A stretch of 53,888 bases of DNA from a virus (IMGVR_UViG_3300031578_000046:1-53888); one strand, 5' to 3'; numbered from the stretch's first letter, positions 4,713-53,888 are shown. Made by a program: numbers and translations. Notes: a model not told the origin generated them from the letters alone.

Positions 4713-4749
4713 AGTTCAAAAATATAAAATATTAATTAGAATTGCAAAT

Positions 4750-4980
4750 TTAATAATTATCGGTTACAAGTTTTAAACCATTAAATTTATAAATTTTTAA
4801 TTTTCGTTTTATTGCCCCCTGATAGCTTATATTTTCATCTTTGGCATATTGTGATAATGTTTTAATATTTAAAATAATAGCAACGTGTTCAAAAATTTGA
4901 ACCAAATCATCATTATTTAGCTCTCCCTTATGAATACATGCAAATAATCTATCTTTTATAATAAGCGATCTATCAGACAT
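4750..4980 (-). CDS. Small putative DNA-binding (HTH-like) protein adjacent to attI-like site
   Basis: KTLSQYAKDENISYQGAIKR resembles an HTH; start codon 40 bp from the array crossover at 5021. Confidence 0.65.
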   Translation of the reverse strand: MSDRSLIIKDRLFACIHKGELNNDDLVQIFEHVAIILNIKTLSQYAKDENISYQGAIKRKLKIYKFNGLKLVTDNY

Positions 4981-4989
4981 TTATGTTAA

Positions 4990-5023
4990 GTTTAAAATTT
5001 TGAACTGACTTTATACAATTGTT
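4990..5023 (+). other. attI-like array entry site, copy 1
   Basis: GTTTAAAATTTTGAACTGACTTTATACAATT-GTT, directly before the first cassette. Confidence 0.7.
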
Positions 5024-5294
5024 AGCGGCAAGCGAAGAAAGGCTTCGGCATTGGCTTCCAATATATTATTTTATTACTTGGTGGTGGACTGCTTTTATAT
5101 CTATTTTCCCACTTCTCACTACCATCGGTAAATTTAAAGTGCATTAAATGGTGTATTGTTCTGTTTTCAAGCATTACAATATATTCTGCTGTCATATCTG
5201 TTTGCGGTGGATAAAAAATATATGAACGCCAGCCGCTAACAAGCAATATAAAAAATGCCTTAAAGTGTGCTAAAATTGAAGTTCTTGTTTTCAT
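5022..5294 (-). CDS. Cassette gene, DUF551-like C-terminus
   Basis: IIYWKPMPKP motif; starts in attC loop, TAA at crossover. Confidence 0.6.
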   Translation of the reverse strand: MKTRTSILAHFKAFFILLVSGWRSYIFYPPQTDMTAEYIVMLENRTIHHLMHFKFTDGSEKWENRYKSSPPPSNKIIYWKPMPKPFFACR

Positions 5295-5358
5295 ATTTAC
5301 TTTATTTTTAATTGATAAATTAGTTCTTTGTAGTCGGCACTTTTCATATTGCCGACCA

Positions 5359-5697
5359 TTAGGCAACATAATGCGCTACTGCTGCCATCCAAAGTATATG
5401 TATAACGTTATCAACTATCACATGCCCCCAAAATTTGCTAAAATCATTCTGGAATTTACCAGTCACCCTGCAAAACCAAGCTACAAAATGTGTTCGGTCT
5501 TGTATGTAATGTTGTACTGCAATAAGCAATAGTTGTATTAAACTTAGTTCTGTAAATATAAACGGTATCATGTACGTTAAAATGTGTACACTACACGCAA
5601 AGTCGCTTTTCTTTTTGTTACCTGCCATCCAATCATTTTGTAGCAAGTAGTCACCTATTAAGTGGGCTAATATCCAAGGCAAATTTAGTCCTATCAT
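5359..5697 (-). CDS. Cassette gene, DUF3307-like membrane protein
   Basis: LAHLIGDYLLQNDWMA, QHYIQD, DNVIH motifs. Confidence 0.75.
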   Translation of the reverse strand: MIGLNLPWILAHLIGDYLLQNDWMAGNKKKSDFACSVHILTYMIPFIFTELSLIQLLLIAVQHYIQDRTHFVAWFCRVTGKFQNDFSKFWGHVIVDNVIHILWMAAVAHYVA

Positions 5698-5951
5698 AAT
5701 TACGTTGCCTAACAATAAATATAGCAAATAGCCAAGTTAGGCGTGCATTTGTCACTATCTGCGTGTTTATAATCATTTTACTGTATTCAAAGTTTGTGCT
5801 ATTTATGGCTACTTGCCATATTCTCAACGTTAGCAAACATTAAAACGATTTGCTAACACGGTATATAACCAATGCTTACCGTGTAGCTTCGTATTAAGTT
5901 TCTGCAAGTGCTTTAAAAATTTTGCCAACGCTCTTTAATTTTTTTCAAAAA

Positions 5952-7054: not shown

Positions 7055-7286
7055 ATATTATGTGATTTTTTTAATTATACGTAAATATAGTTATTATGTT
7101 TCTAATAAACAAGAATTATAGTGTTTATTTTTCTATTTTAATTAAAATATTTTTGCCATCACACAAAAAATAATAAAATTACCTTTCTTCGTAGCGTGCT
7201 AAGTGGCTGATAATGCGCCAGTACATAACACGCAATAAAGCACATTAAAACGATGCCTTATTGCTGTCCGTTGTACGCAATAAAAA

Positions 7287-9295: not shown

Positions 9296-9490
9296 CGTTA
9301 AAAACGTTTTATAACAACGTATAAAATTAATTGCTACGTTATTGGGTTATTTAATGTATTTACTTTTAATCAATTTTTAGTAGTTTGCGAAAGTCGTGCA
9401 TCTAACACGCAACTAATCTTATACCAACGTTATACACAAGCGTAAGAAAGTTTCGTTCATTTAATCAACACCTGTGCAACCTTGCCATAA

Positions 9491-11665: not shown

Positions 11666-11797
11666 TTTATTTAAGTTTTGCGGCTTAAAGTACTACACAC
11701 AACAACGTATATAGTTAAAAAGCCATGTTAATATTCGTTCATTTAATCAGCGTTTGCAGTTGGCTTTCAAACCATATACCAACGTTAGCGGTAATTG

Positions 11798-12178
11798 CTA
11801 CACCACTATCGGCTCTTCGCAAAATGGACATTCGCCAATCTGTATTACTTTTGTTTTGTAGAAGCTCCACGCACTAGCCCTATCAATTTCACTTTCGGTT
11901 ATTGGTGTATACCAGTTTCCAGAAACTTCGCCTGTAATATCATAATATCGTCCATTGTATTTAGTTATTACGTGGTCTTTTTCTTTGCTTATAAAAGCCT
12001 CACTTTCTGGGAAGAATGTTTTTAGCAACAAGTGAAATTGATAACACGCACCATTCATATAAATCATTTCAATATACCTATCTGTTTGGCGAAGTGCGTT
12101 AATAAACCGCAACATACCGCTAACAATACCTATATTTAATTGGGCGTTTACTGCCTCTTCAAACTCTTTTGCTTCCAT
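11798..12178 (-). CDS. Cassette gene, hypothetical
   Basis: Starts in attC loop; GACYQF...HV...YYDITG. Confidence 0.65.
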   Translation of the reverse strand: MEAKEFEEAVNAQLNIGIVSGMLRFINALRQTDRYIEMIYMNGACYQFHLLLKTFFPESEAFISKEKDHVITKYNGRYYDITGEVSGNWYTPITESEIDRASAWSFYKTKVIQIGECPFCEEPIVV

Positions 12179-12251
12179 TTTGCTTTACTTTATATTGATA
12201 ATTTAGTGCTATTAATGCCCAACTAAACATAGCCGAGCCGTTAGCAAACAT

Positions 12252-16296: not shown

Positions 16297-16562
16297 TTTA
16301 CATTTATTTTTATCCATCTATTTAATATAGCATTTGCAGTATTTATATTGAATTTATACCGGCAATATAATCGTTCAATATAATTGTCAAAGTTAGGACA
16401 GCCGATAAGATTTTCATTAACTTTAATTTCAGATATAACACCTTTAATCCAAGCTTCTTTACGGTAGATTTCTAATTCTTTTTTATTCATTTTATTAGCT
16501 GCTATGCAAACGTAAATGAATAAAATTAGAATTGTTATGAAAATTATTGATAGTGTTTTCAT
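16293..16562 (-). CDS. Hypothetical membrane protein
   Basis: N-terminal TM helix. Confidence 0.55.
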   Translation of the reverse strand: MKTLSIIFITILILFIYVCIAANKMNKKELEIYRKEAWIKGVISEIKVNENLIGCPNFDNYIERLYCRYKFNINTANAILNRWIKINVK

Positions 16563-16987
16563 AAATTATAGTTTTTAAGGAATTTATTATAATAATTATC
16601 TGTTTTGTGTTTAGGTAAAAATCCACCACACCAAAACCGGGCTACTTTTTCAGGATTATATTCCGAGTTCCAATAATCGTTAATAATATAAAACATTTCA
16701 ATAGATTTGGAAAAGTTAAATCTATCATCATAAGAATAGTTAAATCCAGAAATACGATTAGCCTCATCAACAGCAATTTTAAACATTTGTAATATTCCAG
16801 AAGCTTTAGATCGTTTATTTATTGCCTTTTCATTAAAGTTTGATTCGATTTTCATTATAGTAAAAAGACATTTTTCTTTTCTTAAAACAAGCTCCTTAAA
16901 TTCTTTAAAAATATCAAAGTTTAATTCTTTGTTTTTTAGTGGAAGAAAAATAAACGTTATAAGTATAATTATAATCATTTTTTTCAT
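16559..16987 (-). CDS. Lytic transglycosylase (SLT-like) with N-terminal hydrophobic segment
   Basis: IMKIESNFNEKAIN...ASGILQM motif. Confidence 0.75.
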   Translation of the reverse strand: MKKMIIIILITFIFLPLKNKELNFDIFKEFKELVLRKEKCLFTIMKIESNFNEKAINKRSKASGILQMFKIAVDEANRISGFNYSYDDRFNFSKSIEMFYIINDYWNSEYNPEKVARFWCGGFLPKHKTDNYYNKFLKNYNL

Positions 16988-17038: not shown

Positions 17039-17072
17039 GTTTAAAATTTTGAACTAACTTTATTCAATTGTT
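17039..17072 (+). other. attI-like array entry site, copy 2
   Basis: GTTTAAAATTTTGAACTAACTTTATTCAATT-GTT. Confidence 0.7.
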
Positions 17073-17448
17073 AGCAATCAGTTTGCCGAGCAGAGCAATC
17101 ATAATCACCGTGTTTACATATATTGTTTTCATTATTTGCACAAGCATTTGAGTAGCAAACCGAATTGCTAACAAGTTGTATAATTAATGCTTTGTTCTCG
17201 TCTGTAATTTTTGCCCACGCACACTTTTCTTTGTCAAGTCCGTACAAGGCATTGCTAATCTCATTGTTAATATCTTCCCACCTATCATCTTCCTCAATCT
17301 CCTGCTCTTCCTCACATCCGCATTGCCTGCATATAGTTGTGTTTAAATGCCACTTATTACTACATACACCATCGTTTAGGTCAAATATTGCTCCGCAATG
17401 CTCGCAGGGTGTTGGCATTTCCATTTGTTCTAAATCATATTCTTCCAT
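17071..17448 (-). CDS. Cassette gene, Cys-rich
   Basis: CEHC/CRQC; starts in attC loop, TAA at crossover. Confidence 0.6.
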   Translation of the reverse strand: MEEYDLEQMEMPTPCEHCGAIFDLNDGVCSNKWHLNTTICRQCGCEEEQEIEEDDRWEDINNEISNALYGLDKEKCAWAKITDENKALIIQLVSNSVCYSNACANNENNICKHGDYDCSARQTDC

Positions 17449-22562: not shown

Positions 22563-22773
22563 AGTTTTAAATTTTGGTTTCGTTTAAATAATAAATATAA
22601 GCCAAAAATTCTTTCATGATCTGATTATCATTTTCAGTTACTTCGCTGCCTGGTGATAATTGATAAAGTTTATTTAATTGTTTCATAGCTGTTTGTTTAA
22701 TTATATTTAAAGATAATTAATAATTTTTATAAAATATATGACTTTTATCATGTTTTGTTATTTATAATCATTA

Positions 22774-22828
22774 TTAATAATTATCAGTTACAAGTTTTAA
22801 ACAAATTAATAAGCGATCTATCAGTCAT
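22774..22828 (-). pseudogene. Internally deleted remnant of gene 4750..4980
   Basis: Sequence matching 4750-4778 is joined to sequence matching 4959-4980. Confidence 0.75.
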
Positions 22829-22837
22829 TTATATTTA

Positions 22838-22871
22838 GTTTAAAATTTTGAACTAACTTTATTCAATTGTT
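22838..22871 (+). other. attI-like array entry site, copy 3
   Basis: GTTTAAAATTTTGAACTAACTTTATTCAATT-GTT. Confidence 0.7.
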
Positions 22872-22879
22872 GTGCGCAA

Positions 22880-23170
22880 TTAAAACGCACCTTCCTGCTC
22901 AATTTCTTCTATCTTTAATTCAAGTTCATCCACATTTTCTGCTTCTTCAATACCCCATTGTCTTAGTTCGTCATTACTTGCCCTTAATTCTTCCAAATAA
23001 TCAATGCAACTTTCAAGTTCATAAGACATATCAGCGGCTGCGGAGTATAAATCATCGTATTCAAGTCCTTCTAACTCTCTGTCTTTATACAATACTTGCT
23101 TTATAGCTTTTATGTATTTATCAATATCAGGGCAAGTATGCTTTATCGGTTCTCTAATATGTGAAGCCAT
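22880..23170 (-). CDS. Cassette gene, coiled-coil phage protein
   Basis: HTCPDID...LEELRASNDELRQWG. Confidence 0.65.
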   Translation of the reverse strand: MASHIREPIKHTCPDIDKYIKAIKQVLYKDRELEGLEYDDLYSAAADMSYELESCIDYLEELRASNDELRQWGIEEAENVDELELKIEEIEQEGAF

Positions 23171-23314
23171 AATTAACTGCGCACAACACTAAATAAAACA
23201 AATAGCCGTGCTATGCGGTCTTTTTAAAGCTATTTGTAAGTTTGTAATATATTTAATCTTTGTAGCTATTATCTTGGGCTACTAGTTTTATTATTTACGT
23301 TAGCAACAAGCCTG

Positions 23315-24697: not shown

Positions 24698-24913
24698 TTA
24701 AAATATTCCTTCAATTCTATAATTTACAGTTGAACGAGCAAGTAAATTATCTATTTGAAATTCCAATTCATCATAATTTTCTGGCTCTTCTTCAAAGAAA
24801 TAACACCCAAATTCTGAATTCCATTCAGTATAAAAATCAGAGTTTGCAATAGCTTCGTGAATAACTCTTTCTGCATCCTTTGTACTTGGAGTTAATTGTA
24901 GTCCTGTTTTCAT
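24698..24913 (-). CDS. Hypothetical acidic protein (probable early gene)
   Basis: ORF with repeated leader sequence. Confidence 0.6.
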   Translation of the reverse strand: MKTGLQLTPSTKDAERVIHEAIANSDFYTEWNSEFGCYFFEEEPENYDELEFQIDNLLARSTVNYRIEGIF

Positions 24914-25027
24914 TTTGTAAAGTTTTTAGTTAATAATTATTTGTTTTATTAATTATAACGTCTAAATTACGTATAAGTTTTAATATATTATATGACTTTT
25001 GTCATGTTTTGTTATTTATAACCATTA

Positions 25028-25082
25028 TTAATAATTATCAGTTACAAGTTTTAAACAAATTAATAAGCGATCTATCAGTCAT
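25028..25082 (-). pseudogene. Second deleted remnant of gene 4750..4980
   Basis: Same deletion junction as 22774-22828. Confidence 0.75.
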
Positions 25083-25091
25083 TTATATTTA

Positions 25092-25125
25092 GTTTAAATT
25101 TTTGAACTGACTTTATTCAATTGTT
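25092..25125 (+). other. attI-like array entry site, copy 4
   Basis: GTTTAAATTTTTGAACTGACTTTATTCAATT-GTT. Confidence 0.7.
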
Positions 25126-25280
25126 ATCGTTCATTGCCGTGAAAAGGCAGTGTTTAAAACGAATAGAAAGAAGCACGGCAACGAAAACGATAACAATGCG
25201 TAAATTCCATGCTTACTTTCTACCTCGTTTCTAAGTCGGTGGGTAATCGAGCAATTAAAAATAAAAGCCCTCACACCGTT

Positions 25281-25511
25281 CTAATCAACTTCGGTAAAAT
25301 CTACATAATAAGTTTTACCAGGAACTAAATAATCTTTGGCAACTGCATTTTTATCAACCTGTATGGTTATGTTACCAGACGGTGTCGCTTCTGCAAACTG
25401 ATTATTTTCCTCGTTGTCTTTGTCATTAGTTCCGTAAACCGCTGACAATTTTGCCTCTTTGTTTCCATAACTGTATTCAGTTACAGAATCGCAATTAAAT
25501 TTTGCTCTCAT
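25281..25511 (-). CDS. Conserved-looking small phage protein inside an attC loop
   Basis: MRAKFNC...EENNQFAEATPSG...YYVDF. Confidence 0.65.
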   Translation of the reverse strand: MRAKFNCDSVTEYSYGNKEAKLSAVYGTNDKDNEENNQFAEATPSGNITIQVDKNAVAKDYLVPGKTYYVDFTEVD

Positions 25512-26672: not shown

Positions 26673-26806
26673 AATATTTAGTTTTAAATTATTTACCAAA
26701 GGTAATATAATATTCCTAATAATGAAACATTGCAAGGTATTTTTTAACTAAAACCTAACAATGTATAAAATTCATTAAAACGAAATTTTATACTCAACGT
26801 TATAGG

Positions 26807-27157
26807 CTATTGCCCTTCAAAATCTTCATTTAGGTATATGCCCTCACCGTCTAACTCATAGCCCATCTCATCTGTCTTCCATTTTACGTGTTTGGTAATT
26901 ATTCTCTTTGTTCCTGCTTTCTCCCCCCACTCTTCTTTGTCGTTTTTGATTGTCACCTCAGTGCCAACTGGCAACAAGCCAATAACAAAGTGTAAGCCCA
27001 ATAATTTTAACTTAGCAGTATTCTGTTTAATAAACTGCGTAGTTATTTGGTCAAGGTCATAATTTCCCTCTGTATCTTCTTGTTGTGCGTTGTCAACATA
27101 TTCCCAATAATCCTTTAATAAATTTTTCATTTCGTTATTTTTAAGTCGTTTTTTCAT
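26807..27157 (-). CDS. Cassette gene, hypothetical
   Basis: Reads through the attC half site (LHFVIG). Confidence 0.6.
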   Translation of the reverse strand: MKKRLKNNEMKNLLKDYWEYVDNAQQEDTEGNYDLDQITTQFIKQNTAKLKLLGLHFVIGLLPVGTEVTIKNDKEEWGEKAGTKRIITKHVKWKTDEMGYELDGEGIYLNEDFEGQ

Positions 27158-27184
27158 TTTGTAAAGTTTTTAGTTAATAATTAA

Positions 27185-27448
27185 TTAATTGATATAAGCT
27201 CTTGAGGCATCATAACTCAATGATGAAGCATATTTATAGGATGCGTTACTATTTTTCCAATCTTCTTTATCTGATTTTAAAAAATTAAATGCACTTGATA
27301 ATGCTTTAACAGCTTCCTTTTTTGTGTTGAAAATTAGTTCTTTATTATTAAATTGCAGATTTTTTTCTACACAATTATCTGTCATAATTGAGTTTCTTAA
27401 TGTTGAATTTCCTGCAAATTGGCCGGTAATAATAATTGAAGTTTTCAT
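27185..27448 (-). CDS. Hypothetical protein (probable first early gene)
   Basis: Follows promoter-like repeat and late-operon terminator. Confidence 0.6.
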   Translation of the reverse strand: MKTSIIITGQFAGNSTLRNSIMTDNCVEKNLQFNNKELIFNTKKEAVKALSSAFNFLKSDKEDWKNSNASYKYASSLSYDASRAYIN

Positions 27449-27544
27449 TTTGTAAAGTTTTTAGTTTGTAATTAATTATACGTTAAATATACGTATAAGT
27501 TTCGACATATACAAATGTTTTCGTAGTTTATAACCATTCTAAAT

Positions 27545-28851: not shown

Positions 28852-29136
28852 ATAACTTTATTAACTTCTAAATATTTATTATAAATATCTGTTTTATAAT
28901 ATTTATCTAAAAATTTAAAAAAATCATTTAATAAATAAGAAAATAAAAAAACTTTAAAGAACCAATTAACCGGAATAAATAAAAACAATCTTGATTTTTT
29001 ATTAAACTCGCTTTTTATTAGCCCCTCGGTTAATATGACTATTCCTGTATCTTTTATTGTTAAAATATATTGTTAATAATTTGTTAATATCATTTATTTT
29101 TTGTATCTTTCTTTTTTTAAACTAAAATTTACTACT

Positions 29137-29631
29137 ATGAAAAATTTATTTATTTTAATCGGTTTAGTTTTTGTTGTTAATTGTTATTCTCAAAGAGAAA
29201 ATATCCTAAGTTTTTCTTATGCTCCTGGTTCAAATGAAATAGGATTAATTTACATTTCAAAACCTATTTTTAGCTTGCAAAAAGATTATAAGCTTTATTC
29301 TTCATTCGAATATGGTAATTATAAACTAATTGAAAGAAAAGTAAGCCGTATTGGTCTAGGGTTTTCAACTGATATAGATTCGAGAGTTAGTTATAACTTT
29401 GCTATTTCTATAAATATTGAAAAATCAGATACCGTTATTATTAGTTATACATCTGGAGGTATTACAACTAATGTTATTCCAGTAAGACCAATTACCTCTG
29501 AAATGGGGTTAACATTTCAAATTAGTCAAAGAACTTATTTAACAATTATGTCTGATCTAATTCATCAAGCCATATTTTATAATAATTTTGCAGCCCCTCA
29601 TTTTAAATTTGGACTAGGTTATAAATTTTAA
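29137..29631 (+). CDS. Putative outer-membrane beta-barrel protein (moron)
   Basis: Signal peptide, amphipathic beta strands, C-terminal FGLGYKF; only credible plus-strand gene. Confidence 0.7.
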   Translation: MKNLFILIGLVFVVNCYSQRENILSFSYAPGSNEIGLIYISKPIFSLQKDYKLYSSFEYGNYKLIERKVSRIGLGFSTDIDSRVSYNFAISINIEKSDTVIISYTSGGITTNVIPVRPITSEMGLTFQISQRTYLTIMSDLIHQAIFYNNFAAPHFKFGLGYKF

Positions 29632-29644
29632 TTCAAAGAACTTA

Positions 29645-30304
29645 TCAATCTTTTATTAATCTTATTGACATGCCGTCATAAGCGTTTGAGGGACCTAAAC
29701 AAGGATTAAGAATACTTGCTGTATTATAATGCAACCTCATAAAATAATAATAAACACTCGTGCTTTTAAATTTCATATAAAAATATTGATTTATTTGTGA
29801 AAAATTATATATATCTAATTGATAAAAGCCGCATGGTCTAGCACTAAAATGAATAGTATCAATAGCCCCTGTATTTGGACTTTGCCAATATGTAGTTCCT
29901 TCCTCTTTTAAAAAACCTCCATTAATAGCATAATCACAGTTTCTTGGTATTCCGAGGATTAATCTGAGTGTTTGAAATTCATTAGTGTCCGGGATATGCC
30001 AACCGCTTATATTTTCTGACATTCTATTAGCTCCTGTATCAGTATACAATATTCCATATTCCCAATATGATGTGGAATCATTATCATACCAATACATTCC
30101 GGTATCATTATCCATATACCTAAGGTTTTCACACATCCAAGTTTGAGTGCCTACCGTCACAATTTCATATTTTATTCCACCGATAGTAGAACTATCAAGT
30201 GTGTACACAATACTATCATTATTATTACCTATTATAAAAAATGGCACTTGACAAAAACTGTCAAGACTAAAAACAATAAATAATATTATTAATATTTTTT
30301 TCAT
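29645..30304 (-). CDS. FISUMP (Fib_succ_major) domain protein with signal peptide
   Basis: VGTQTWMCENLRY, YGILY, GWHIP, WQSPNTGA, FSARPCG, GMSIRLIKD. Confidence 0.85.
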   Translation of the reverse strand: MKKILIILFIVFSLDSFCQVPFFIIGNNNDSIVYTLDSSTIGGIKYEIVTVGTQTWMCENLRYMDNDTGMYWYDNDSTSYWEYGILYTDTGANRMSENISGWHIPDTNEFQTLRLILGIPRNCDYAINGGFLKEEGTTYWQSPNTGAIDTIHFSARPCGFYQLDIYNFSQINQYFYMKFKSTSVYYYFMRLHYNTASILNPCLGPSNAYDGMSIRLIKD

Positions 30305-49550: not shown

Positions 49551-49744
49551 TTAATAATGCTTATTTTAATTTAGACTAAATAAATATAAGCAAAACTAAA
49601 ACAAAAAAAACGAAATAGCAAATTATTTCGTTAATTTATTTAGAATTGTTCTAAATAATTTTTGTCTTCTGTTTTTTTTTCATAGTATTATTTTATTTTT
49701 CTAAGTTTCATATTTAGTATTTTTACAGATTCATATTATTACCG

Positions 49745-51557: not shown

Positions 51558-51690
51558 ATAACAATTTGTAAAAATAATAGCCTGCTATGTGGTCTTTTTA
51601 GAGCTATTATCGATTATTAAACTATTGTATTTCAATCAATATTTCTGCGTATTTACGGCTACTATTCTTATACCAACGTTATATGCAAGG

Positions 51691-51942: not shown

Positions 51943-52007
51943 TCAATCTTTATCTATCAATAGTTTCGCCAGCGCTAAATTCAATTTCTCTGTAATTTGT
52001 TTTCATT

Positions 52008-52589
52008 TTATATTATTTTAAGTTTTACAAGTTCATTAAAACAACGCTCAGTAGCTATCACATCATTAGCAGCATTATGAGCCTCAAATGTTTCACTAAA
52101 TAGTTTAAAATATAGCTCTTCAAGTGTTGGAAACTTTGGTTTATTACTATTTTTTTGTTTAAGGCCGCAAAACTTAATAGTCTTCATCATTGTGTCTATT
52201 CGTTTATTTTTGTGTAGAGCAAAAATAAGACTATCAACATTACTATTATTATATAATCTTAAATAATTTGCCTTAATTATTGAAGTATCGAAATAAATGT
52301 TATGACCAATTATCTTATCAGCTATTAAACAATTTTTAATAAATTCTAAAAAAACTAATCCAAAATCAACACCCGTTTTATTAGCTATTTCATTTGTTAT
52401 ACCATGTATTTTAGTTGATTCAATTGGTATTTCGTAGCCTTCAGACTTAATAATATAATCATTTACATTAAGTTCATCTGATCTTTTCCAGGCAATCTGC
52501 ACTATATAAGGAAATTGCATGTAATCAGTTTTCCAATGCAATCCTTTAGGAACTAATCCGGTTGTTTCTATATCAAATGTTATATTCAT
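52008..52589 (-). CDS. DEDDh 3'-5' exonuclease (DnaQ-like)
   Basis: FDIETTG, IHGIT, GHNIYFD, AHNAANDV. Confidence 0.9.
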   Translation of the reverse strand: MNITFDIETTGLVPKGLHWKTDYMQFPYIVQIAWKRSDELNVNDYIIKSEGYEIPIESTKIHGITNEIANKTGVDFGLVFLEFIKNCLIADKIIGHNIYFDTSIIKANYLRLYNNSNVDSLIFALHKNKRIDTMMKTIKFCGLKQKNSNKPKFPTLEELYFKLFSETFEAHNAANDVIATERCFNELVKLKII

Positions 52590-53409: not shown

Positions 53410-53484
53410 TTTGTCAATTAGTTTTAGATAAACTAGTACAAATTTACAATTAAATAATTAGAATAACAAAACTTTATACACATT

Positions 53485-53888
53485 TTATCCCATTCCCTTT
53501 AGAACTGCAAAGAATCTATAAGAAAGTAAATCTACTAAATCAATATCCCGGCCTAAAGATTCAATTATCTGTTTACGTGAAATGATTTCAAGTTTATTAT
53601 TCTCTGAATATTTATTTTGCTTAACATGCTGTAATTCCTGTTTTAATTCATCATTAGGAAACTTACATTCAACAGATAAAGTACCGTTATTGATTGATTT
53701 AATGAAATAAAAATAAAGCTGATGTTTAAAATTTTTATAATTTTCTCTGCCTATTGGTTGTTTATCTGGTTTAATTCGTAAAGCTCCATAAAAATATTTA
53801 TTAAATTCACCGGTTGTATCGAAATAAACAACATCATTCATTGACTGTTTTAGCTTCATTACAGCAAGTGTTATCTTCTTTACATACT
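53485..53888 (-). CDS. 3' part of junction-spanning terminase C-terminal-like gene
   Basis: NFKHQLYFYF...ELKQEL...KLEIISRKQIIESLGRDIDLVDLLSYRFF. Confidence 0.7.
   Translation of the reverse strand, partial: YVKKITLAVMKLKQSMNDVVYFDTTGEFNKYFYGALRIKPDKQPIGRENYKNFKHQLYFYFIKSINNGTLSVECKFPNDELKQELQHVKQNKYSENNKLEIISRKQIIESLGRDIDLVDLLSYRFFAVLKGMG
53712..53888 (+). repeat. Terminal overlap, copy 2
   Basis: Matches 1-177 with one mismatch. Confidence 0.95.

Follow-up and report, generated by a model that had tools for sequence, protein, structure and literature searches.

What does a sequence of 34 nt do that recurs four times in one phage genome, each time in an intergenic gap directly ahead of a gene or gene run? 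A preliminary description of this DNA had taken the copy at 4990–5023 and its three counterparts for attI-like entry sites of an integron platform, each heading an array of gene cassettes. The analysis presented here leads to another reading, to which we give about even odds (a probability of roughly 0.5): the 34-mer may be the promoter/operator module of a small gene, named P0001, which was duplicated at the junction cores of cassettes and which would restart or regulate transcription after each cassette row.

The window, by which we mean the whole stretch of DNA that was analyzed (53.9 kb), is the entire IMG/VR virus record IMGVR_UViG_3300031578_000046. It carries a direct terminal repeat of 177 bp (1–177 and 53712–53888, 99% identity) and is probably a complete genome; the record is classified as linear, with 51% completeness. 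Its GC content is 30%, and matches to PHROG families identify a large terminase, a DnaB-type helicase, a replication initiator, a methyltransferase, an exonuclease, a portal, a major head protein, and tail fibres. All PHROG-matched genes and nearly all other long ORFs are located on the minus strand. The sole sizeable ORF on the plus strand (29101–29631, 176 aa, no Pfam match) is flanked by the tail-fibre genes on one side and by the beginning of the early region on the other, within a minus-strand gap of 656 nt; a divergent control region may be located here. Searches of the window gave no Rfam family and no tRNA.

The consensus TTTG, 17–23 nt, TAnnTTTG has five full matches on the minus strand and two on the plus strand, and four of the five minus-strand matches occupy gaps immediately upstream of genes (Table 1). 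No Shine–Dalgarno-like sequence is visible ahead of the start codons inspected. Together, the Bacteroidota-type promoter matches and the lack of visible Shine–Dalgarno sequences make a host of Bacteroidota type likely, as judged from the DNA; the terminase, only about 40% identical to those of many unrelated phages, gives no host clue. The canonical match directly behind the P0001 stop codon was used as the yardstick of promoter geometry for this phage and, with its 4-nt distance from the next ATG, would yield a leaderless transcript.

Searches for close relatives at the DNA level gave no match when 21 kb of the window were compared by megablast with 50,697 phage records, when the 186-nt module was compared with the same number of phage records by blastn, or when IMG/VR was scanned twice with exact patterns. 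A tblastn search with P0001 against cultured phages was likewise negative, and a DnaB-based hunt for related loci returned 27 candidates, none of which was confirmed. None of the six RNA runs found is listed as containing this phage. In four soil DNA runs, contigs break at the repeats, and none of the 15 joints listed (of 85) falls at an edge of the 34-mer, which makes this comparison uninformative.

Anatomy and conservation of the 34-mer and its gene

The four copies are found where the preliminary description had placed them, starting at 4990, 17039, 22838, and 25092. A degenerate 31-mer matches the window exactly four times, always on the plus strand, and none of 100 dinucleotide shuffles contained any match (chance expectation 0); 31 of the 34 positions are invariant over the four copies and three are variable. 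A four-way alignment confirmed that similarity halts at GTT, with A as the following base in three copies. The four first cassettes differ, as had been proposed: the ORFs on the right-hand side are unrelated to one another (best BLASTP E-value 1.8). The imperfect palindrome GTTTAAAW/TTTTGAAC noted within the 34-mer is present as well. Read on the minus strand, the sequence consists of a (T)AAC, an AT-rich spacer of 15 nt, and an imperfect dyad of 16 bp. Since the genes are on the minus strand, the 34-mer is upstream of the genes to its left, not of those to its right.

Toward the left, similarity continues: a 9-nt leader and the first seven codons of P0001 are common to three copies. The gene is intact only at copy 1. 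Copies 3 and 4, which are 95% identical over 148 nt, retain a stub of 14 codons, in which the first seven codons of P0001 run, out of frame, into roughly the final 37 nt of the gene. Copy 2 agrees with copy 1 at 32 of the 34 positions, with only 68% identity in the surrounding 69 nt; its downstream neighbour, after a leader of 51 nt, is a gene for a transglycosylase-domain protein (16559–16987, ATG at 16987). The intact gene, the stubs, and the lone 34-mer together indicate that the repeat unit was originally the 34-mer plus the gene. The copies arose by duplication of this whole module, with P0001 afterwards deleted internally in two copies and lost wholly in one, and with the 34-mer left intact. 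That the 34-mer persisted as P0001 decayed points to selection acting on the 34-mer. The P0001 coding sequence contains another dyad-like 16-mer, which may be no more than a result of coding conservation.

Table 1. Positions of the modules, genes, promoter matches, cassette-like segments, and inverted-repeat elements discussed in the text.
Feature	Position	Strand	Remarks
Copy 1 of the 34-mer	4990–5023	−	dyad 4990–5005; 9 nt upstream of the intact P0001 ATG
Copy 2 of the 34-mer	17039–17072	−	34-mer alone, no P0001 remnant
Copy 3 module	22724–22871	−	34-mer 22838–22871, 9-nt leader, P0001 stub 22784–22828
Copy 4 module	24978–25125	−	34-mer 25092–25125, P0001 stub 25038–25082
P0001 gene (76 aa)	4750–4980	−	predicted: two N-terminal helices; C-terminal strand-helix-helix-hairpin, winged-helix-like
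Second dyad-like 16-mer, inside the P0001 coding sequence	4887–4902	−	encodes VQIFE; also in the L005 homologue
Canonical Bacteroidota-type promoter match	4717–4748	−	TTTG, 20 nt, TAnnTTTG; immediately behind the P0001 stop, 4 nt before the next ATG
Intergenic promoter matches	4717–4748, 1885–1915, 49591–49622, 53439–53470	−	full match to the TTTG/TAnnTTTG consensus
Right-hand ORFs	5022–5369, 17071–17448, 22880–23170, 25281–25511	−	compared by BLASTP among themselves
Segment at copy 1	5021–5240	−	GTTA + 5 nt ... complementary 5 nt + TAAC; score 18, reached by 17/300 shuffles
Segment at copy 2	17070–17172	−	self-complementary GTTA...TAAC ends; 0/300 shuffles
Segment at copy 3 (gene 22880–23170)	22869–23187	−	15-nt self-complementary GTTG...CAAC ends; 0/300 shuffles
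Near-empty segment at copy 4	25123–25194	−	72-nt hairpin, stem GTTA to TAAC; 0/300 shuffles; energy −24.6, z −5.4
Inverted-repeat elements, attC-like	5710–5832, 9312–9432, 11700–11787, 12121–12243, 26756–26802, 51559–51681	−	TAAC...GTTA
Relatives with the element family (L005, L006, L009, L013, L014, L016, L019)			left-arm profile

A handful of P0001 homologues turned up in metagenomes, and loci with such genes were recovered from IMG/VR and JGI contigs. All 11 testable homologues in other phage contigs share one layout, in which AAC(A/T) is followed by 13–16 nt, a 16-bp dyad, 0–3 nt, and the ATG. The loci tested were L005, L006, L007, and L009–L016 (by pattern) and L019 (by eye); L007 duplicates L005, which leaves ten distinct loci, and L008, which comes without upstream sequence, was left out. 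The dyad was measured in 15 copies, namely at nine distinct loci found by the pattern, at the second L016 site, at L019, and in the four window copies. Its six outer pairs are complementary at 4–6 of the six positions in all 15, against a background mean of 1.97 complementary pairs and a probability of 0.014 for five or more. The letters of the dyad differ between lineages and its symmetry is kept, that is, the half-sites co-vary by compensatory change.

The loose AAC–spacer–dyad pattern was found in four of five related records and is mostly single-copy in relatives (reversed-pattern controls, 0–2 per strand); L016 contains a second good copy, which stands before a different gene. In relatives, the gene downstream (for a DnaB-like helicase in L005) overlaps P0001 or directly adjoins it, so that P0001 heads a unit of core genes. 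Related groups of loci (L009/L010/L011 and L005/L006) lose similarity at AAC, so that the breakpoint at GTT, on which the entry-site idea depended, is present in the window and has its counterpart between related phages.

The P0001 protein matched no family in Pfam or PHROG. Its AlphaFold2 model (pLDDT 86.8, from a 15-sequence alignment) has the order helix-helix-strand-helix-helix-hairpin, and the top Foldseek matches in the PDB are all winged-helix regulators, none of them significant (best E-value 0.19); a profile search of the PDB gave unrelated proteins, with a best E-value of 0.23. Structural neighbours of residues 30–76 or so in the Atlas carry HTH_17, an excisionase-type domain, at TM 0.45–0.55, and serve as leads only. 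The homodimer prediction scored 0.57, compared with 0.01 for the best of three controls. Of proteins solved as pairs of one chain, 20 of 30 reached this mark, as did one of 23 solved as single chains; these calibration counts are valid only roughly because a custom P0001 alignment was used. Between dimer runs, at least 93% of the contacts agree and the partner pLDDT is at least 79; the predicted interface is formed by residues 3–41, and the C-terminal part would stay free. By its model, P0001 thus looks like a dimeric DNA binder. Neither sequence nor fold comparison gave a significant match to the HTH_17/excisionase-type winged-helix proteins; P0001 may work like such a protein but cannot be assigned to that family. 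Three Cro/CI-type HTH_3 proteins are encoded among the small ORFs, separate from P0001.

Cassette-like segments and attC-like elements

At all four copies, a segment that ends in (T/C)AAC begins 70–317 nt upstream with a complementary GTT(A/G) sequence (Table 1). Among relatives, such a closing segment, with a match starting at GTT, is present at five of the ten testable sites (reached by 0 to 10 of 300 shuffles) and partial at a sixth; the remaining four sites have none, and one of these has just 194 nt of upstream sequence. In the window, every copy of the 34-mer lies exactly at the AAC/GTT junction core of a cassette-like segment.

A family of inverted-repeat elements occupies many minus-strand gaps between 5.3 and 26.8 kb and between 51 and 52 kb. 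These elements, of 47 to about 123 nt, run from (Y)TAAC to GTT(A/G), in which TAA is often the stop codon of the upstream gene, and they alternate with gene segments that have complementary ends (GTTA...TAAC). With a profile built from 17 left arms, about 20 sites score E <0.1, each of them on the gene strand; in seven relatives' loci the profile detects 13 sites at E <1, which again all lie on the gene strand and, moreover, all upstream of P0001. The arms vary between copies, each pairing with its own partner, with compensatory arm changes between phages, and the minimum-energy fold closes TAAC/GTTA in six elements. Counts of the motifs by themselves are not raised. RYYYAAC is the consensus used for strict attC pairs, and strict RYYYAAC...GTTRRRY pairs number two, versus 9.9 ± 4.3 in shuffles; loose TAAC...GTTA hairpins are not enriched either (25 versus 16–26), and the z-scores of two long elements folded as single-stranded DNA (−0.12 and +0.48) are no better than those of shuffles.

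A copy of the 34-mer stands at the end of four of the window's five runs of attC-like elements. Along the direction of transcription, the 34-mer closes these rows, so that the picture of a sequence heading four arrays applies to their layout but not to their reading. With the verified cassette ends, the AAC breakpoints of the related pairs, and the run ends taken together, both "heads arrays" and "breakpoint at GTT" are structurally right.

The element family extends to a cultured phage. Polaribacter phage P12002L has five matches to the left-arm profile, one of which is flanked by two methyltransferase genes and shares its loop motif with the window element at 26756–26802. According to Qi et al. 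(2023; PMC9892861), the CALIN of P12002L, which encodes two methyltransferases, has attC sites, one of which was recombined by IntI1. Short hairpin elements that share a loop motif of 8–10 nt were seen at 26756–26802 and in the 7055–7286 gap of the window, at L006:113, at L014:991, and around 30034–30064 of P12002L (L036); their stems differ by compensatory changes, and the loop motif is conserved from the soil phage to the marine Polaribacter phage.

Other repeats in the window were recorded as well. Two duplications connect the early accessory region to the region of small genes that separates terminase from portal, one of 166 nt (10118–10283/51087–51252, 93%) and one of 80 nt (9424–9503/50474–50553, 95%); both sit in element-bearing gaps, and cassette/site units thus appear to have been copied between rows. 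A conserved stretch of about 27 nt whose end is the start codon recurs at four different small genes (24905–24931, 27149–27175, 27440–27466, and 51998–52024); it is a second repeated class of leader or promoter, distinct from the 34-mer.

A proposed promoter/operator module or a possible site of cassette entry

The co-varying dyad, the start codon, and the gene for a predicted dimeric DNA-binding protein are, on sequence grounds, arranged as in an operator/promoter. Along the minus strand, the module consists of a (T)AAC core, an AT-rich spacer of about 15 nt, the 16-bp dyad, a short leader, and P0001, with the dyad overlapping a putative weak promoter box of the −7 type. The co-occurrence of dyad and gene suggests that the dyad is bound by P0001 dimers. 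For copy 1 at 4990, this would amount to autoregulation, and at the other three copies the downstream transcription units would be put under the same P0001 control, so that, behind each row of accessory cassettes with hairpins between them, transcription would be restarted or gated. The sharp AAC/GTT edge would arise because the modules of the accessory region all join their neighbours at that core.

The promoter part of this proposal was compared with Flavobacterium johnsoniae, for which a −7 box with six nearly invariant positions (T−12, A−11, T−8, T−7, T−6, and G−5) and a transcription start 4–5 nt after the box are reported (PMC6847099). In L005 and L006, the box in the dyad matches five of the six invariant positions, the F. 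johnsoniae rule places the start at the A of the ATG, and the spacing between box and ATG is that of the canonical promoter at 4717–4748. The window copies have a −7-like box that matches four of the six positions, with T−12 and G−5 missing, at 13 nt from the ATG, and the −33 position in the 34-mer reads AACA, not TTTG. A promoter that is weak or depends on a factor would fit this geometry. General scans add little: a sigma-70 consensus scan gave 66 sites versus 59.6 ± 8.6 in shuffles, which is uninformative at 30% GC, and a terminator scan did not rise above shuffles. The one element run without a 34-mer, at about 51.2–51.7 kb, is followed downstream by the canonical match at 49591–49622 as its next promoter-type match, some 1.6 kb on, in line with promoters lying behind the ends of arrays. 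Counting against the promoter/operator reading, the fixed core-to-dyad spacing of 13–16 nt and the breakpoint at AAC fit a recombination site at least as well.

These same features carry the main alternative, which we regard as unlikely: the 34-mer would be an attI-like docking site at which a recombinase acting in trans inserts or removes TAAC...GTTA cassettes, with P0001 as an accessory factor. Core and dyad would then form a double-stranded partner site for a recombinase from the host or from another phage in the same cell, P0001 would be a dimeric protein of excisionase-like action, bound 15 nt away from the point of crossover, and the four copies would be four platforms. The segments that close at the terminal (T/C)AAC next to all four copies, and at five of ten sites in relatives, are what such a site would border, as are the four of five element runs that end at a copy and the 13 element matches in the first set of relatives' loci, all of them upstream of P0001. 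The start of similarity between related phages at AAC, the fixed spacing, the HTH_17 leads for the C-terminal half of P0001, and the occurrence of the same element family between the methyltransferase genes of P12002L, a phage for which attC sites, one of them recombined by IntI1, are reported (PMC9892861), point in this direction as well.

Against docking stands, first of all, the search for an enzyme. Tyrosine recombinases (PF00589) were detected in none of six records, that is, neither in the 53.9-kb record, for which the control search was positive in all 14 reference genomes, nor in five related P0001-bearing records (two with terminal repeats); of the 28 Pfam families found in 90 small ORFs, the 25 listed include no recombinase, and no recombinase PHROG was matched among the 20 larger window proteins scanned. 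No longer protein with a P0001-like part was found, which is weak evidence. The crossover core has the consensus GTTRRRY (PMC9892861), and none of the four heptamers at the boundary with the first cassette fits it; all that they share is GTT. The far ends of the five rows lack a conserved "other half", the best candidate being a 12-mer at E 0.075, and in the complete relative G002 a second element run is not ended by the motif. P12002L carries cassette elements, yet it lacks P0001 and any convincing head motif, which indicates that the module is not a general part of the cassette system. Finally, two of the four copies are plainly decayed duplicates of a gene start. Cassette genes next to an attI are transcribed away from it, starting at a promoter in the site, whereas here the adjoining minus-strand genes read toward the 34-mer; this orientation argument against a recombination role is weakened, because the cassette ends were verified.

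Taken together, the 34-mer is probably not an integron-style entry site. The claim of a phage-encoded, attI-like primary integration site is not supported: no tyrosine recombinase was detected in the record, GTTRRRY fits at none of four boundaries, and the element is the native upstream region of P0001. Of the multi-locus integron platform, what stands is the position of the copies at four AAC/GTT cassette junctions; two of them are duplicated gene starts with a gutted ORF. A broader version, in which P0001 and the 34-mer anchor a recombinase-less, mirror-image gene-capture platform in soil Bacteroidota phages and recruit a Xer-type recombinase from the host or a helper, is also doubtful. There, (T)AAC would be the crossover point, the excisionase-like dimer bound 15 nt away would recruit the recombinase, and copying of the anchor would have produced four independent cassette rows in one 54-kb genome. 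The docking and promoter/operator roles could, however, coincide.

A further alternative, which we consider very unlikely, treats the 34-mer as the left arm of a variant inter-cassette TAAC...GTTA element that carries P0001 or its stub as cargo in the loop. It draws on copy 4, in which TAAC and GTTA delimit 108 nt that form a single long, imperfect hairpin, where the 34-mer pairs with what is left of the 3′ end of P0001 through arms of 23–25 nt that are 76–78% complementary (single-stranded DNA z −2.59; three of 200 shuffles fold as well), and in which the stub followed by GTTA, 4 nt, and TAAC resembles an empty gene slot; the start of the 34-mer also weakly resembles the left arms of the family. 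When scored with the profile of 17 left arms, however, two of the 34-mer sites reach only E 0.31 and E 2.2 and the other two lie above E 100. Copy 3 fails to close (z −0.98), GTTA closure is missing from the intact copy, whose ends are not significantly complementary (P 0.1), and none of ten relatives shows complementarity between element and P0001 end at P <0.05, so that support for a cargo site comes from copy 4 only. That the copies are functionless scars, decaying leftovers of three extra P0001 genes, is suggested by the frameshifted stubs of two copies and the missing gene of a third but is highly improbable, given 31 of 34 positions that stayed invariant despite adjoining deletion and divergence, and given that each copy is kept in a gap directly ahead of a gene or gene run.

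If the promoter/operator reading is true, the module would explain how the core genes of the phage are insulated from its variable, hairpin-rich accessory region; if docking is true, the module would be the first candidate for the point at which cassettes enter a phage system without a recombinase of its own. In either case, the window shows a conserved row-closing module, with a small protein gene and with constant spacing between dyad and junction core, which recurs in unrelated phage contigs. Accessory-gene rows joined at TAAC/GTTA hairpin sites seem common in Bacteroidota phages. The attC-like sites of such phage rows in print so far are only the few of Qi et al. (2023; PMC9892861), and a limited literature search on integron-like phage cassettes found no description of a row-end module of this kind.

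Comparison with known systems

The integron attI site with its array shares several features with the 34-mer: variable cassettes adjoin a conserved sequence that is not a hairpin, the breakpoint coincides with the AAC/GTT core, and several different first cassettes occur. Unlike attI, the 34-mer has no integrase adjoining it or elsewhere in the record, and its core lies outside GTTRRRY. Furthermore, the cassette genes are transcribed toward the site, there are four copies per genome, and the sequence is the upstream region of a small gene that does not encode a recombinase.

The CALINs of virulent phages are related at the level of the elements, as P12002L shares the TAAC...GTTA family with the rows that the 34-mer closes. 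In its available text, the work that described them covers attC-type sites only and no conserved row-end module (Qi et al., 2023; PMC9892861). P12002L differs from the phage analyzed here in that it has no P0001 homologue.

A different parallel concerns regulation and the organization of P0001 itself. In both the P0001 module and the repressors of Cro/CI type, a small dimeric HTH-like protein (predicted in the case of P0001) is encoded behind a dyad that overlaps a likely promoter, and extra copies of the operator, here putative, stand ahead of other units. Small phage repressors of this type are autoregulated and have a dyad operator over their own promoter. Unlike them, P0001 matched no HTH Pfam family, and its binding to the dyad is suggested by the arrangement of the locus.

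PeSLs (promoter-early stem-loops), regulatory cassettes of T4-type phages (Arbiol et al., 2010, PMC2839356; Comeau et al., 2014, PMC4122927), come nearest to the module as a whole. Both are short repeated intergenic units in the accessory-gene regions of phages of lytic type; both start at the stop codon of the upstream gene, contain a stem-loop and a promoter (a presumed one in the 34-mer module), and end at the next start codon; and both mark joints between unrelated genes. In the module, the stem-loop lies just upstream of AAC in most copies, and its fold is significant in one of the four window copies (z −5.4). The promoters of PeSLs are described in these texts as perfect sigma-70 promoters with measured activity, whereas that of the 34-mer would be a weak one of the Bacteroidota −7 type. 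Compared with the PeSLs as described there, the 34-mer module adds a dyad together with a small gene of its own for a predicted DNA-binding protein, and its junctions lie at a fixed TAAC/GTTA core that is common to the attC-like elements. Judged by these analogies, the PeSL regulatory cassettes are the closest described analogues of the 34-mer module.
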